DNA of 38,553 nt, taken from the sequence record MG833025.1; one strand, 5' to 3'. Positions 1-38,553 of the stretch are shown here, piece after piece (position 1 is the first letter of the stretch; each line of letters begins with the position of its first letter). The position numbers were made by a program, and so were the translations under genes. The notes under the pieces were generated by a model. That model ran no database searches and was not told the DNA's origin. It was given only the letters and a program-made list of their open reading frames with translations. This DNA is from Escherichia phage T7.

Positions 1-160
1 TCTCACAGTGTACGGACCTAAAGTTCCCCCATAGGGGGTACCTAAAGCCCAGCCAATCACCTAAAGTCAACCTTCGGTTGACCTTGAGGGTTCCCTAAGG
101 GTTGGGGATGACCCTTGGGTTTGTCTTTGGGTGTTACCTTGAGTGTCTCTCTGTGTCCCT
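1..160. repeat. Left direct terminal repeat, identical to 38394-38553
   Basis: The first 160 nt recur exactly at the right end; T7 has a 160-bp terminal redundancy. Confidence 0.95.
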
Positions 161-174
161 ATCTGTTACAGTCT

Positions 175-345
175 CCTAAAGTATCCTCCTAAAGTCACCT
201 CCTAACGTCCATCCTAAAGCCAACACCTAAAGCCTACACCTAAAGACCCATCAAGTCAACGCCTATCTTAAAGTTTAAACATAAAGACCAGACCTAAAGA
301 CCAGACCTAAAGACACTACATAAAGACCAGACCTAAAGACGCCTT
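175..345. repeat. Array of short CCTAAAG-family repeats next to the left terminal repeat
   Basis: Repeated cctaaag/acctaaag units, including the tandem agaccagacctaaag copies, are read directly; T7 has such repeats at its ends. Confidence 0.7.
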
Positions 346-387
346 GTTGTTAGCCATAAAGTGATAACCTTTAATCATTGTCTTTAT

Positions 388-410
388 TAATACAACTCAC
401 TATAAGGAGA
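388..410 (+). promoter_or_regulatory. T7 RNA polymerase promoter phiOL (left replication origin promoter)
   Basis: taatacaactcactataaggaga is a near-consensus 23-mer with +1 near 405. Confidence 0.85.
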
Positions 411-462
411 GACAACTTAAAGAGACTTAAAAGATTAATTTAAAATTTATCAAAAAGAGTAT

Positions 463-498
463 TGACTTAAAGTCTAACCTATAGGATACTTACAGCCA
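463..498 (+). promoter_or_regulatory. Host sigma70 early promoter A1
   Basis: -35 ttgact at 463-468 and -10 gatact at 485-490, at the known T7 A1 position. Confidence 0.85.
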
Positions 499-588
499 TC
501 GAGAGGGACACGGCGAATAGCCATCCCAATCGACACCGGGGTCAACCGGATAAGTAGACAGCCTGATAAGTCGCACGAAAAACAGGTA

Positions 589-626
589 TTGACAACATGA
601 AGTAACATGCAGTAAGATACAAATCG
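589..626 (+). promoter_or_regulatory. Host sigma70 early promoter A2
   Basis: -35 ttgaca at 589-594 and -10 taagat at 613-618. Confidence 0.85.
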
Positions 627-713
627 CTAGGTAACACTAGCAGCGTCAACCGGGCGCACAGTGCCTTCTAGGTGACTTAAGCGCACCACGGCACATAAGG
701 TGAAACAAAACGG

Positions 714-750
714 TTGACAACATGAAGTAAACACGGTACGATGTACCACA
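714..750 (+). promoter_or_regulatory. Host sigma70 early promoter A3
   Basis: -35 ttgaca at 714-719 and -10 tacgat at 737-742. Confidence 0.85.
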
Positions 751-924
751 TGAAACGACAGTGAGTCACCACACTGAAAGGTGATGCGGTCTAACGAAAC
801 CTGACCTAAGACGCTCTTTAACAATCTGGTAAATAGCTCTTGAGTGCATGACTAGCGGATAACTCAAGGGTATCGCAAGGTGCCCTTTATGATATTCACT
901 AATAACTGCACGAGGTAACACAAG

Positions 925-1278
925 ATGGCTATGTCTAACATGACTTACAACAACGTTTTCGACCACGCTTACGAAATGCTGAAAGAAAACATCCGTTATG
1001 ATGACATCCGTGACACTGATGACCTGCACGATGCTATTCACATGGCTGCCGATAATGCAGTTCCGCACTACTACGCTGACATCTTTAGCGTAATGGCAAG
1101 TGAGGGCATTGACCTTGAGTTCGAAGACTCTGGTCTGATGCCTGACACCAAGGACGTAATCCGCATCCTGCAAGCGCGTATCTATGAGCAATTAACGATT
1201 GACCTCTGGGAAGACGCAGAAGACTTGCTCAATGAATACTTGGAGGAAGTCGAGGAGTACGAGGAGGATGAAGAGTAA
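925..1278 (+). CDS. 0.3: Ocr, DNA-mimic inhibitor of type I restriction-modification
   Basis: 117-aa acidic protein [22 protein letters not shown]... matching T7 gp0.3, first gene after A1-A3. Confidence 0.95.
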
Positions 1279-1433
1279 TGTCTACTACCAACGTGCAATA
1301 CGGTCTGACCGCTCAAACTGTACTTTTCTATAGCGACATGGTGCGCTGTGGCTTTAACTGGTCACTCGCAATGGCACAGCTCAAAGAACTGTACGAAAAC
1401 AACAAGGCAATAGCTTTAGAATCTGCTGAGTGA
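1278..1433 (+). CDS. 0.4: Gene 0.4 small protein (51 aa)
   Basis: The ATG overlaps the 0.3 stop (taATG); [51 protein letters not shown]. It is below the ORF-track size cutoff. Confidence 0.8.
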   Translation: MSTTNVQYGLTAQTVLFYSDMVRCGFNWSLAMAQLKELYENNKAIALESAE

Positions 1434-1490
1434 TAGACTCAAGGTCGCTCCTAGCGAGTGGCCTTTTTGATTATCACTTTACTTATGAGG
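1434..1490 (+). promoter_or_regulatory. Probable RNase III processing site (R0.5-like) with the native gene 0.5 RBS
   Basis: actcaaggtcgctcctagcgagtggcc can form a hairpin like T7 RNase III sites; gaggga lies just before the ATG at 1496. Confidence 0.55.
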
Positions 1491-1495
1491 GAGTA

Positions 1496-2491
1496 ATGAG
1501 CATCGCGGCGACCCTGGAGAACGATCTGGCGCGTCTGGAAAACGAAAACGCTCGTCTCGAAAAAGACATCGCGAACCTGGAACGTGACCTGGCGAAACTG
1601 GAGCGTGAAGAAGCGTACTTCGGAGGTTCAGGTGGTAAGAACACTGGTGAAATCTCTGAGAAAGTCAAGCTGGGCACTAAGGCACTGGCTGGTCAATGGC
1701 TGGCTTACGGTGTTACTCGCAGTGTGACTAAGAGTTCAGTCATGACGCTGGCTTACGGGTCCAAAGAGTTCGGCTTCCGTCAACAAGTGCTGGAAGATAC
1801 CATTCAGCCAGCTATTGATTCCGGCAAGGGTCTGATGTTCACTCAGCCGAATCAGGCTGCTGGATACATGGCTAAGCTGATTTGGGAATCTGTGAGCGTG
1901 ACGGTGGTAGCTGCGGTTGAAGCAATGAACTGGCTTAAGTCTGCTGCTAAGCTGCTGGCTGCTGAGGTCAAAGATAAGAAGACTGGAGAGATTCTTCGCA
2001 AGCGTTGCGCTGTGCATTGGGTAACTCCTGATGGTTTCCCTGTGTGGCAGGAATACAAGAAGCCTATTCAGACGCGCTTGAACCTGATGTTCCTCGGTCA
2101 GTTCCGCTTACAGCCTACCATTAACACCAACAAAGATAGCGAGATTGATGCACACAAACAGGAGTCTGGTATCGCTCCTAACTTTGTACACAGCCAAGAC
2201 GGTAGCCACCTTCGTAAGACTGTAGTGTGGGCACACGAGAAGTACGGAATCGAATCTTTTGCACTGATTCACGACTCCTTCGGTACGATTCCGGCTGACG
2301 CTGCGAACCTGTTCAAAGCAGTGCGCGAAACTATGGTTGACACATATGAGTCTTGTGATGTACTGGCTGATTTCTACGACCAGTTCGCTGACCAGTTGCA
2401 CGAGTCTCAATTGGACAAAATGCCAGCACTTCCGGCTAAAGGTAACTTGAACCTCCGTGACATCTTAGAGTCGGACTTCGCGTTCGCGTAA
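1496..2491 (+). CDS. 1: Split T7 RNA polymerase, C-terminal fragment: Met, SYNZIP18-like coiled coil, GGSGG, Lys, polymerase residues 601-883 with apparent R632S
   Basis: Translation SIAATLENDLARLENENARLEKDIANLERDLAKLEREEAYF-GGSGG-KNTGEISEKV... runs to the polymerase C-terminus ...LRDILESDFAFA. It contains motif C (IHDSF, H811/D812) and the specificity-loop region. Confidence 0.93.
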   Translation: MSIAATLENDLARLENENARLEKDIANLERDLAKLEREEAYFGGSGGKNTGEISEKVKLGTKALAGQWLAYGVTRSVTKSSVMTLAYGSKEFGFRQQVLEDTIQPAIDSGKGLMFTQPNQAAGYMAKLIWESVSVTVVAAVEAMNWLKSAAKLLAAEVKDKKTGEILRKRCAVHWVTPDGFPVWQEYKKPIQTRLNLMFLGQFRLQPTINTNKDSEIDAHKQESGIAPNFVHSQDGSHLRKTVVWAHEKYGIESFALIHDSFGTIPADAANLFKAVRETMVDTYESCDVLADFYDQFADQLHESQLDKMPALPAKGNLNLRDILESDFAFA

Positions 2492-2510
2492 TAAAGAGGA
2501 GAAATACTAG
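2491..2510 (+). promoter_or_regulatory. Synthetic intercistronic RBS (aaagaggagaaa plus tactag spacer) after a double stop
   Basis: taataaagaggagaaatactagATG matches a standard synthetic-biology RBS part with an assembly scar; this is not native T7 sequence. Confidence 0.8.
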
Positions 2511-4463
2511 ATGAACACGATTAACATCGCTAAGAACGACTTCTCTGACATCGAACTGGCTGCTATCCCGTTCAACACTCTGGCTGACCATTACGGTGAG
2601 CGTTTAGCTCGCGAACAGTTGGCCCTTGAGCATGAGTCTTACGAGATGGGTGAAGCACGCTTCCGCAAGATGTTTGAGCGTCAACTTAAAGCTGGTGAGG
2701 TTGCGGATAACGCTGCCGCCAAGCCTCTCATCACTACCCTACTCCCTAAGATGATTGCACGCATCAACGACTGGTTTGAGGAAGTGAAAGCTAAGCGCGG
2801 CAAGCGCCCGACAGCCTTCCAGTTCCTGCAAGAAATCAAGCCGGAAGCCGTAGCGTACATCACCATTAAGACCACTCTGGCTTGCCTAACCAGTGCTGAC
2901 AATACAACCGTTCAGGCTGTAGCAAGCGCAATCGGTCGGGCCATTGAGGACGAGGCTCGCTTCGGTCGTATCCGTGACCTTGAAGCTAAGCACTTCAAGA
3001 AAAACGTTGAGGAACAACTCAACAAGCGCGTAGGGCACGTCTACAAGAAAGCATTTATGCAAGTTGTCGAGGCTGACATGCTCTCTAAGGGTCTACTCGG
3101 TGGCGAGGCGTGGTCTTCGTGGCATAAGGAAGACTCTATTCATGTAGGAGTACGCTGCATCGAGATGCTCATTGAGTCAACCGGAATGGTTAGCTTACAC
3201 CGCCAAAATGCTGGCGTAGTAGGTCAAGACTCTGAGACTATCGAACTCGCACCTGAATACGCTGAGGCTATCGCAACCCGTGCAGGTGCGCTGGCTGGCA
3301 TCTCTCCGATGTTCCAACCTTGCGTAGTTCCTCCTAAGCCGTGGACTGGCATTACTGGTGGTGGCTATTGGGCTAACGGTCGTCGTCCTCTGGCGCTGGT
3401 GCGTACTCACAGTAAGAAAGCACTGATGCGCTACGAAGACGTTTACATGCCTGAGGTGTACAAAGCGATTAACATTGCGCAAAACACCGCATGGAAAATC
3501 AACAAGAAAGTCCTAGCGGTCGCCAACGTAATCACCAAGTGGAAGCATTGTCCGGTCGAGGACATCCCTGCGATTGAGCGTGAAGAACTCCCGATGAAAC
3601 CGGAAGACATCGACATGAATCCTGAGGCTCTCACCGCGTGGAAACGTGCTGCCGCTGCTGTGTACCGCAAGGACAAGGCTCGCAAGTCTCGCCGTATCAG
3701 CCTTGAGTTCATGCTTGAGCAAGCCAATAAGTTTGCTAACCATAAGGCCATCTGGTTCCCTTACAACATGGACTGGCGCGGTCGTGTTTACGCTGTGTCA
3801 ATGTTCAACCCGCAAGGTAACGATATGACCAAAGGACTGCTTACGCTGGCGAAAGGTAAACCAATCGGTAAGGAAGGTTACTACTGGCTGAAAATCCACG
3901 GTGCAAACTGTGCGGGTGTCGACAAGGTTCCGTTCCCTGAGCGCATCAAGTTCATTGAGGAAAACCACGAGAACATCATGGCTTGCGCTAAGTCTCCACT
4001 GGAGAACACTTGGTGGGCTGAGCAAGATTCTCCGTTCTGCTTCCTTGCGTTCTGCTTTGAGTACGCTGGGGTACAGCACCACGGCCTGAGCTATAACTGC
4101 TCCCTTCCGCTGGCGTTTGACGGGTCTTGCTCTGGCATCCAGCACTTCTCCGCGATGCTCCGAGATGAGGTAGGTGGTCGCGCGGTTAACTTGCTTCCTA
4201 GTGAAACCGTTCAGGACATCTACGGGATTGTTGCTAAGAAAGTCAACGAGATTCTACAAGCAGACGCAATCAATGGGACCGATAACGAAGTAGTTACCGT
4301 GACCGATGAGAACGGAGGTTCAGGTGGTGGATCCAACGAAAAAGAAGAACTGAAATCCAAAAAAGCGGAACTGCGCAACCGTATCGAACAGCTGAAACAG
4401 AAACGTGAACAACTGAAGCAGAAAATCGCGAACCTGCGTAAAGAAATCGAAGCTTACAAATAA
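2511..4463 (+). CDS. 1: Split T7 RNA polymerase, N-terminal fragment: residues 1-601, GGSGGGS, SYNZIP17-like coiled coil
   Basis: MNTINIAKNDFSDIELAAIPFNTLADHYGERLAREQ... runs to ...NEVVTVTDEN, then GGSGGGS and NEKEELKSKKAELRNRIEQLKQKREQLKQKIANLRKEIEAYK. It contains motif A (D537). Confidence 0.93.
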   Translation: MNTINIAKNDFSDIELAAIPFNTLADHYGERLAREQLALEHESYEMGEARFRKMFERQLKAGEVADNAAAKPLITTLLPKMIARINDWFEEVKAKRGKRPTAFQFLQEIKPEAVAYITIKTTLACLTSADNTTVQAVASAIGRAIEDEARFGRIRDLEAKHFKKNVEEQLNKRVGHVYKKAFMQVVEADMLSKGLLGGEAWSSWHKEDSIHVGVRCIEMLIESTGMVSLHRQNAGVVGQDSETIELAPEYAEAIATRAGALAGISPMFQPCVVPPKPWTGITGGGYWANGRRPLALVRTHSKKALMRYEDVYMPEVYKAINIAQNTAWKINKKVLAVANVITKWKHCPVEDIPAIEREELPMKPEDIDMNPEALTAWKRAAAAVYRKDKARKSRRISLEFMLEQANKFANHKAIWFPYNMDWRGRVYAVSMFNPQGNDMTKGLLTLAKGKPIGKEGYYWLKIHGANCAGVDKVPFPERIKFIEENHENIMACAKSPLENTWWAEQDSPFCFLAFCFEYAGVQHHGLSYNCSLPLAFDGSCSGIQHFSAMLRDEVGGRAVNLLPSETVQDIYGIVAKKVNEILQADAINGTDNEVVTVTDENGGSGGGSNEKEELKSKKAELRNRIEQLKQKREQLKQKIANLRKEIEAYK

Positions 4464-4520
4464 GAGGGACAAACTCAAGGTCATTCGCAAGAGTGGCCTT
4501 TATGATTGACCTTCTTCCGG
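4464..4520 (+). promoter_or_regulatory. RNase III processing site R1.1 region
   Basis: gagggacaaactcaaggtcattcgcaagagtggcctttatgattgacc has a hairpin-capable actcaagg...gagtggcc motif like other T7 RNase III sites. Confidence 0.55.
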
Positions 4521-4521
4521 T

Positions 4522-4544
4522 TAATACGACTCACTATAGGAGAA
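4522..4544 (+). promoter_or_regulatory. T7 promoter phi1.1B
   Basis: taatacgactcactataggagaa, +1 near 4539. Confidence 0.9.
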
Positions 4545-4622
4545 CCTTAAGGTTTAACTTTAAGACCCTTAAGTGTTAATTAGAGATTTAAATTAAAGAA
4601 TTACTAAGAGAGGACTTTAAGT
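4545..4622. other. AT-rich region of the primary origin of replication
   Basis: AT-rich tract ttaaggtttaactttaag...agatttaaattaaagaattac just downstream of phi1.1B, where the T7 primary origin lies. Confidence 0.6.
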
Positions 4623-4751
4623 ATGCGTAACTTCGAAAAGATGACCAAACGTTCTAACCGTAATGCTCGTGACTTCGAGGCAACCAAAGGTCGCAAGTTG
4701 AATAAGACTAAGCGTGACCGCTCTCACAAGCGTAGCTGGGAGGGTCAGTAA
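4623..4751 (+). CDS. 1.1: Gene 1.1 small basic protein (42 aa)
   Basis: MRNFEKMTKRSNRNARDFEATKGRKLNKTKRDRSHKRSWEGQ with RBS gagagga upstream. Confidence 0.8.
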   Translation: MRNFEKMTKRSNRNARDFEATKGRKLNKTKRDRSHKRSWEGQ

Positions 4752-4752
4752 G

Positions 4753-5010
4753 ATGGGACGTTTATATAGTGGTAATCTGGCAGCATTCAAGGCAGCAACA
4801 AACAAGCTGTTCCAGTTAGACTTAGCGGTCATTTATGATGACTGGTATGATGCCTATACAAGAAAAGATTGCATACGGTTACGTATTGAGGACAGGAGTG
4901 GAAACCTGATTGATACTAGCACCTTCTACCACCACGACGAGGACGTTCTGTTCAATATGTGTACTGATTGGTTGAACCATATGTATGACCAGTTGAAGGA
5001 CTGGAAGTAA
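4753..5010 (+). CDS. 1.2: Gene 1.2, inhibitor of host dGTPase
   Basis: MGRLYSGNLAAFKAATNKLFQLDLAVIYDDWYDAY... 85 aa. Confidence 0.85.
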   Translation: MGRLYSGNLAAFKAATNKLFQLDLAVIYDDWYDAYTRKDCIRLRIEDRSGNLIDTSTFYHHDEDVLFNMCTDWLNHMYDQLKDWK

Positions 5011-5030
5011 TACGACTCAGTATAGGGACA
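5008..5030 (+). promoter_or_regulatory. T7 promoter phi1.3
   Basis: taatacgactcagtatagggaca, +1 near 5025. Confidence 0.9.
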
Positions 5031-5090
5031 ATGCTTAAGGTCGCTCTCTAGGAGTGGCCTTAGTCATTTAACCAATAGGAGATAAACATT

Positions 5091-6170
5091 ATGATGAACA
5101 TTAAGACTAACCCGTTTAAAGCCGTGTCTTTCGTAGAGTCTGCCATTAAGAAGGCTCTGGATAACGCTGGGTATCTTATCGCTGAAATCAAGTACGATGG
5201 TGTACGCGGGAACATCTGCGTAGACAATACTGCTAACAGTTACTGGCTCTCTCGTGTATCTAAAACGATTCCGGCACTGGAGCACTTAAACGGGTTTGAT
5301 GTTCGCTGGAAGCGTCTACTGAACGATGACCGTTGCTTCTACAAAGATGGCTTTATGCTTGATGGGGAACTCATGGTCAAGGGCGTAGACTTTAACACAG
5401 GGTCCGGCCTACTGCGTACCAAATGGACTGACACGAAGAACCAAGAGTTCCATGAAGAGTTATTCGTTGAACCAATCCGTAAGAAAGATAAAGTTCCCTT
5501 TAAGCTGCACACTGGACACCTTCACATAAAACTGTACGCTATCCTCCCGCTGCACATCGTGGAGTCTGGAGAAGACTGTGATGTCATGACGTTGCTCATG
5601 CAGGAACACGTTAAGAACATGCTGCCTCTGCTACAGGAATACTTCCCTGAAATCGAATGGCAAGCGGCTGAATCTTACGAGGTCTACGATATGGTAGAAC
5701 TACAGCAACTGTACGAGCAGAAGCGAGCAGAAGGCCATGAGGGTCTCATTGTGAAAGACCCGATGTGTATCTATAAGCGCGGTAAGAAATCTGGCTGGTG
5801 GAAAATGAAACCTGAGAACGAAGCTGACGGTATCATTCAGGGTCTGGTATGGGGTACAAAAGGTCTGGCTAATGAAGGTAAAGTGATTGGTTTTGAGGTG
5901 CTTCTTGAGAGTGGTCGTTTAGTTAACGCCACGAATATCTCTCGCGCCTTAATGGATGAGTTCACTGAGACAGTAAAAGAGGCCACCCTAAGTCAATGGG
6001 GATTCTTTAGCCCATACGGTATTGGCGACAACGATGCTTGTACTATTAACCCTTACGATGGCTGGGCGTGTCAAATTAGCTACATGGAGGAAACACCTGA
6101 TGGCTCTTTGCGGCACCCATCGTTCGTAATGTTCCGTGGCACCGAGGACAACCCTCAAGAGAAAATGTAA
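5091..6170 (+). CDS. 1.3: ATP-dependent DNA ligase
   Basis: 359 aa with the KYDGVRG adenylation motif (lysine nucleotidyltransferase motif I). Confidence 0.95.
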   Translation: MMNIKTNPFKAVSFVESAIKKALDNAGYLIAEIKYDGVRGNICVDNTANSYWLSRVSKTIPALEHLNGFDVRWKRLLNDDRCFYKDGFMLDGELMVKGVDFNTGSGLLRTKWTDTKNQEFHEELFVEPIRKKDKVPFKLHTGHLHIKLYAILPLHIVESGEDCDVMTLLMQEHVKNMLPLLQEYFPEIEWQAAESYEVYDMVELQQLYEQKRAEGHEGLIVKDPMCIYKRGKKSGWWKMKPENEADGIIQGLVWGTKGLANEGKVIGFEVLLESGRLVNATNISRALMDEFTETVKEATLSQWGFFSPYGIGDNDACTINPYDGWACQISYMEETPDGSLRHPSFVMFRGTEDNPQEKM

Positions 6171-38393: not shown

Positions 38394-38553
38394 TCTCACA
38401 GTGTACGGACCTAAAGTTCCCCCATAGGGGGTACCTAAAGCCCAGCCAATCACCTAAAGTCAACCTTCGGTTGACCTTGAGGGTTCCCTAAGGGTTGGGG
38501 ATGACCCTTGGGTTTGTCTTTGGGTGTTACCTTGAGTGTCTCTCTGTGTCCCT
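38394..38553. repeat. Right direct terminal repeat
   Basis: Identical to 1-160. Confidence 0.95.

Follow-up and report, generated by a model that had tools for sequence, protein, structure and literature searches.

Two cistrons in the early region of this phage genome are separated by a short spacer whose ribosome-binding site (RBS) resembles a synthetic part, which raises the question of whether the spacer was designed in a laboratory or belongs to the natural phage. The window, the whole 38,553-nt stretch of DNA that was analyzed, was read directly at 2481-2513 as cgttcgcg TAA T AAAGAGGAGAAA TACTAG ATG. An earlier note on this DNA had recognized a registry RBS followed by its assembly scar between the two cistrons, at 2489-2510, and these coordinates proved exact. 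The string resolves into the following elements:

2489-2491, plus strand: stop codon TAA, read from the window letters
2492-2494, plus strand: second in-frame stop, formed by T2492 and the first two A's of the RBS to give TAATAA
2493-2504, plus strand: BBa_B0034, the 12-mer AAAGAGGAGAAA, an exact match to the registry part
2505-2510, plus strand: TACTAG, the RFC10 scar between an RBS and a coding sequence, abutting the ATG
2511-2513, plus strand: ATG, start of cistron 2 and the native start codon of gene 1
2492-2510, plus strand: the 19-nt intercistronic spacer TAAAGAGGAGAAATACTAG, composed of the extra stop, BBa_B0034, and TACTAG

BBa_B0034, the Elowitz-derived registry RBS, is present as the exact 12-nt part and ends 6 nt upstream of the ATG at 2511; the intervening 6 bp are the XbaI/SpeI mixed scar TACTAG of BioBrick RFC10, placed directly between RBS and ATG. 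The part and scar named in the earlier note are documented in Table 1 of PMC5834881, where BBa_B0034 is given as AAAGAGGAGAAA and the BioBrick RBSs B0029 to B0064 are listed in a ...TACTAGATG context. The further claim that nothing alike exists elsewhere in the genome held for the composite string and failed for its parts. A search of the window with the 18-mer AAAGAGGAGAAATACTAG, tolerating up to two mismatches, hit this one site, and 100 dinucleotide-preserving shuffles yielded none; AAAGAGGAGAAA, TACTAGATG, and AGGAGAAATACTAG are likewise single-copy in the window, and wild-type T7 (NC_001604) lacks all three. The shorter GAGGAGAAA, however, has a second site at window 16107-16115 (T7 17491-17499), the native RBS of gene 6, which shares 9 of the 12 bases of the B0034 core and has an equal predicted anti-Shine-Dalgarno duplex energy (−9.1 kcal/mol), and bare TACTAG is found at five further places in native T7 sequence, counting both strands. 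Uniqueness belongs to the composite alone, not to its sub-strings: the RBS core by itself is no proof of synthetic origin, and it is the scar and the context that provide the proof.

The composite string was detected in only two records of the plasmid database PLSDB, both of them cloning or reporter vectors. In pMQ it has the canonical layout, a synthetic constitutive promoter followed by TACTAGAG, AAAGAGGAGAAA, TACTAG, and the ATG of mCherry, and pSGKp-Tmcr-500GFP has the 22-mer of the phage in the order lacO-...-TAAAGAGGAGAAATACTAGATG-GFP, lacking the upstream scar. The phage spacer is identical to the standard arrangement of BBa_B0034 with the RFC10 scar in its exact 12-nt part, the TACTAG, and the ATG that follows, and it shares a 21-mer with pMQ (in front of mCherry) and pSGKp-Tmcr-500GFP (in front of GFP); it differs in having no TACTAGAG upstream, in the single T that links it to the preceding stop codon, and in its residence in a phage genome rather than a plasmid.

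When an RBS and a coding part are put together by RFC10 assembly, TACTAG is left immediately before the ATG, so the hexamer could record a real XbaI/SpeI BioBrick ligation made at this junction while the cassette was being built. We regard that as quite unlikely. The 8-bp BioBrick scar TACTAGAG that would mark a preceding part is absent from the whole window, and directly upstream of B0034 the sequence is GCG TAA T, where one T lies between the stop codon and the RBS and gives rise to the designed second stop. Moreover, pSGKp-Tmcr-500GFP carries TAAAGAGGAGAAATACTAGATG likewise without the upstream scar, and the methods of the paper describing the phage (PMC6009699) make no mention of BioBrick assembly. 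Because TACTAGAG is missing upstream of B0034, the block was not built in place by standard two-sided assembly, and because pSGKp-Tmcr-500GFP holds TAAAGAGGAGAAATACTAGATG in the same truncated state, the RBS-plus-scar block circulates as a unit. Most likely, then, the scar is a fossil that came along with B0034 when the block was copied from a primer, a previous construct, or a synthesized piece of DNA.

The surroundings of the spacer were defined by comparison with T7. Megablast of window 1-6000 against GenBank phages returned T7 at 99.9% identity and 95% coverage in four pieces, and the whole window was aligned block by block to NC_001604, with the following result:

1-1498: T7 1-1498, with one mismatch at 1467
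1499-1637: novel sequence
1638-2491: T7 4969-5822
2492-2505: novel sequence
2506-4313: T7 3166-4973, of which gene 1 proper is window 2511-4313 (T7 3171-4973)
4314-4462: novel sequence
4463-38553: T7 5847-39937, at 100% identity
4463-4544, plus strand: right junction, where T7 resumes at 5847, one base before the +1 position of phi1.1A

The block junctions are clean and in frame, and the part of the T7 match at 2506-2510 is a chance agreement of 4 out of 5 bases (ACTAG versus native ACTAA). Missing from the window are genes 0.5, 0.6A/B, and 0.7, the E. coli promoter C, the R1 RNase III site, and native gene 1, corresponding to T7 1499-3165 and 5823-5846, and a bicistron that carries both halves of gene 1, their order exchanged, fills the gap. 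With the deletion of T7 5823-5846, positions −17 to −2 of phi1.1A, its recognition region, were lost, and the window accordingly contains 15 T7-promoter-like sites against 16 in the wild type, the missing one being phi1.1A; downstream of the right junction, phi1.1B (4522-4544) is intact and the region of the R1.1 hairpin is kept. The 160-bp direct terminal repeat is intact, and its two copies (window 1-160 and 38394-38553) are identical; since the T7 repeat stands in the same form at both ends, the window is a complete linear genome.

Translation, alignment to T7, and, for the first cistron, a PDB search gave the composition of the two coding sequences:

1496-2494, plus strand: cistron 1, the sigma fragment
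1496-1498, plus strand: ATG of gene 0.5
1499-1621, plus strand: SynZIP18, SIAATLENDLARLENENARLEKDIANLERDLAKLEREEAYF, the 41 aa after the Met
1622-1636, plus strand: GGSGG linker
1637-1639, plus strand: Lys codon
1638-1642, plus strand: first copy of AGAAC (T7 4969-4973), the overlap of the aligned blocks
1640-2488, plus strand: T7 RNA polymerase (RNAP) residues 601-883
1733, plus strand: R632S, C>A (CGT to AGT), the low-toxicity "T7* RNAP" mutation
2287, plus strand: silent C>G in Thr816 (ACC to ACG), removing a KpnI site GGTACC (T7 5613)
2489-2494, plus strand: double stop TAATAA
2511-4463, plus strand: cistron 2, the alpha-beta (core) fragment
2511-4313, plus strand: T7 RNAP residues 1-601 (T7 3171-4973)
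3923, plus strand: silent T>C in Asp471 (GAT to GAC), creating a SalI site GTCGAC at 3918
4309-4313, plus strand: second copy of AGAAC, at the end of the RNAP part of the core fragment
4314-4334, plus strand: GGSGGGS linker with a BamHI site
4335-4460, plus strand: 42-aa heptad-repeat zipper with a HindIII site, presumed SynZIP17
4461-4463, plus strand: stop codon TAA

We take the 42-aa zipper on the core fragment to be SynZIP17. A full-text literature search for it returned no printed sequence, Syn18 in PMC8477956 being the only one of the two zippers that turned up in print, and neither the RBS-plus-scar string nor the SynZIP sequences are present in four supplementary files of Segall-Shapiro 2014 that were searched. 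On the sigma fragment, all 41 aa of SIAATLENDLARLENENARLEKDIANLERDLAKLEREEAYF are identical to Syn18 (SynZIP18) as printed in PMC8477956, and the PDB search aligned aa 48-331 of the cistron with T7 RNAP 600-883 and aa 5-40 with a SYNZIP-family coiled coil. The SalI change at 3923 is carried by none of the 229 matching phage records and, sought in PLSDB as a known polymorphism of cloned T7 gene 1, found no match there; the two silent changes at 2287 and 3923 are presumably cloning-history marks of a plasmid-borne T7* RNAP gene. AGAAC (T7 4969-4973) is present in both fragments, and Asn601 is therefore encoded twice. Mu transposition generates a 5-bp target-site duplication, and the doubled AGAAC looks like one that dates from the splitposon insertion by which the split site was located.

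The "splitposon" is the mini-Mu element with which Segall-Shapiro et al. (2014, Mol Syst Biol 10:742; PMC4299498) bisected T7* RNAP (R632S); in their design, split at 601, the N-terminal core bears SZ17 and the C-terminal sigma fragment bears SZ18, and BBa_B0034 is named among the RBSs employed. The polymerase encoded in the window has the same split after residue 601 (the core ends at T7 4973, in codon 601, and the sigma fragment restarts at T7 4969), the same SZ18 on 601-883, a zipper on 1-601, R632S, and the transposon footprint. Segall-Shapiro et al. expressed the fragments from plasmids with separate promoters, to serve as a resource allocator; in the phage, the pair makes up a single bicistron of reversed order under early phage promoters.

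That arrangement was described by Garry, Ellington, Molineux, and Bull (2018, Virus Evol 4:vey017; PMC6009699), who put a two-fragment RNAP, derived from the split polymerase of Segall-Shapiro et al., into T7-delta-1, a phage without genes 0.5, 0.6A/B, 0.7, and 1 and part of phi1.1A. The fragments were placed in reverse order (sigma 5′ of alpha-beta) "on the same transcript," with a 19-base separation that includes an extra stop, and the construct was published as a test of viral attenuation via protein fragmentation. The window agrees with their phage JB 13-78 (MG833025) in the extent of the deletion, in the reversed fragments, and in the 19-nt spacer, which occupies 2492-2510 and starts with TAA. 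The ancestral bases in Table 1 of that paper match the window at 1486 (T), 1893 (GTG, V133), 1929 (AAC, N145), and 4297 (ACC, T596), and the boundaries of the reported deletion 1180-1534 fit as well. Positions 17498, 22666, 33991, and 36465 of the same table (genes 6.7, 10B, 17, and 19) fit the window only at +38; either Table 1 was based on a reference that is shorter by 38 nt in the part downstream of gene 1, or mapping was done on a sequence other than the deposited one. Judged by this fit to the published description, the window appears to be the ancestral phage JB 13-78, GenBank MG833025. We put the probability at about 96% that the flagged string is the designed 19-nt spacer between the cistrons of the engineered split T7 RNAP in JB 13-78. 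The assertion of laboratory construction is also borne out by the 2018 description of a phage with a 19-base spacer and an extra stop; the element and the genome have both been published before and are not novel.

The phage was propagated on plasmid-bearing hosts (PMC6009699), so plasmid reads could contaminate a lysate, and the cassette might then be an assembly chimera between T7-delta-1 and its complementing or recombination plasmid, not physically in the phage at all. We rejected this as very improbable. The junctions are seamless at the ATG of gene 0.5 and at T7 5847, exactly where T7-flanked arms would recombine; without the cassette the genome has no RNA polymerase; and the recombinants of Garry et al. 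needed no complementation for growth, and substitutions arose within the cassette as they later evolved.

Natural sequence collections were searched for the string and for the junction. The 21-mer AAAGAGGAGAAATACTAGATG had no exact match in IMG/VR (2.9 million viral contigs) and none in GTDB, taken as one genome per species (596 Gb), a search in which about 0.3 matches to a 21-mer are expected by chance. With an 80-nt query spanning the junction, none of the 472 matching GenBank phage records covered at least 80% of its length: the alignments of T7 and its close relatives begin at window 2506, and none of the matching records reaches upstream of window 2500. The wild-type gene 1 leader is GGAAGAGGCACTAA, a natural T7-group leader that the window does not share. 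In this search, which corresponds to the refuting check named in the earlier note, no T7-group or other phage record spanned the junction. That the spacer is a natural intercistronic RBS of a T7-group phage with a chance likeness to the registry part is scarcely credible and effectively refuted, for although T7 has purine-rich RBSs such as that of gene 6, and the native gene 1 leader ends in ACTAAATG, whose last 5 bases before the ATG equal the scar by chance at 4 positions, wild-type T7 contains neither the 12-mer nor the composite, the 21-mer has no exact match in IMG/VR or GTDB, no matching phage record bridges the junction, and the flanks are a circularly reordered gene 1 with designed SynZIPs, Gly-Ser linkers, and BamHI and HindIII sites.

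With the string read as a designed spacer, its likely role is in translation of the second cistron. The Shine-Dalgarno sequence GAGGAG (2496-2501) lies 9 nt upstream of the ATG. Compared with the native T7 gene 1 initiation region (T7 3150-3173), the start codon and downstream coding sequence are the same and both leaders end in ACTA(A/G)ATG, but the native Shine-Dalgarno sequence is only GAGG, with a predicted anti-Shine-Dalgarno duplex of −5.8 kcal/mol against −9.1 kcal/mol for B0034 and −8.8 kcal/mol for gene 10. The B0034 initiation region is also predicted to be mostly unpaired, with a mean probability of being unpaired of 0.72 (native gene 1, 0.51). This phage has lost the leader of native gene 1 together with the E. 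coli promoter C and the R1 RNase III site upstream of it, and a scan of window 1280-4700 found no sigma-70-like promoter. Upstream of cistron 1 the T7 sequence is kept:

1441-1495, plus strand: native T7 leader upstream of cistron 1

It contains a hairpin with its stem at 1441-1465, which by the T7 map we take to be the R0.5 RNase III site, and the gene 0.5 Shine-Dalgarno sequence GAGGGAG at 1487-1493, with a predicted duplex of −8.0 kcal/mol.

These features are compatible with the following course of expression. T7-delta-1 was rescued through recombination with a plasmid cassette. As both cistrons are early and neither has its own promoter, they would be transcribed by E. coli RNA polymerase from A1-A3, probably on a single mRNA, the ends of which by the T7 map are presumably set by RNase III sites R0.5 and R1.1. 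The sigma cistron would be translated from the native gene 0.5 RBS, with the second in-frame stop of TAATAA ensuring that the sigma peptide is terminated, and the core cistron from B0034, which as a working signal would supply the Shine-Dalgarno sequence GAGGAG while the TACTAG scar sets the distance to the ATG of the core fragment. Joined by the antiparallel SynZIP17/18 zippers, the two peptides would then reconstitute an active polymerase. Sigma was placed before core so that the gene cannot be fused again by a simple deletion. Garry et al. raised the adjacency of the fragments as a possible aid to their association (PMC6009699). Ribosomes that finish the sigma fragment might reinitiate on the core cistron, 19 nt from stop to start, which would tie production of one fragment to that of the other, in location as well as quantity, and help their assembly; we consider this tentative and on balance unlikely. 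Were it true, the split-polymerase phage would owe its viability to the bicistronic layout as well as to the zippers.

The RBS by itself touches no open biological question. The element is a reliable, checkable mark of a laboratory construct, and its main value is for curation: since the genome is a laboratory construct, its early region should not be read as natural phage biology or diversity. In the published construct it is the reversed bicistron, its second cistron presumably translated from the flagged RBS, that prevents a simple deletion from causing reversion.

Just 3′ of the R0.5 hairpin, window 1467 is T where the wild type has A. All matching phage records have A at this position, and none of the 78 reaches 99% identity. 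The change, which is not mentioned in Garry et al. (2018, PMC6009699), converts CCTTTATGATT to CCTTTTTGATT, abolishes an upstream ATG (1466-1468), and causes the hairpin to score as terminator-like in a simple scan. A 70-nt fold had suggested that 1467 pairs with 1486, the intergenic site of an evolved T>G substitution that would then be compensatory; this pairing was rejected, as contexts of 65, 101, and 161 nt gave a pair probability of at most 0.12 and the pair is not in the minimum free energy structure. The A>T change could be a PCR mutation, a background mutation, or an early adaptation, and as an early adaptive change it could affect expression of the bicistron.
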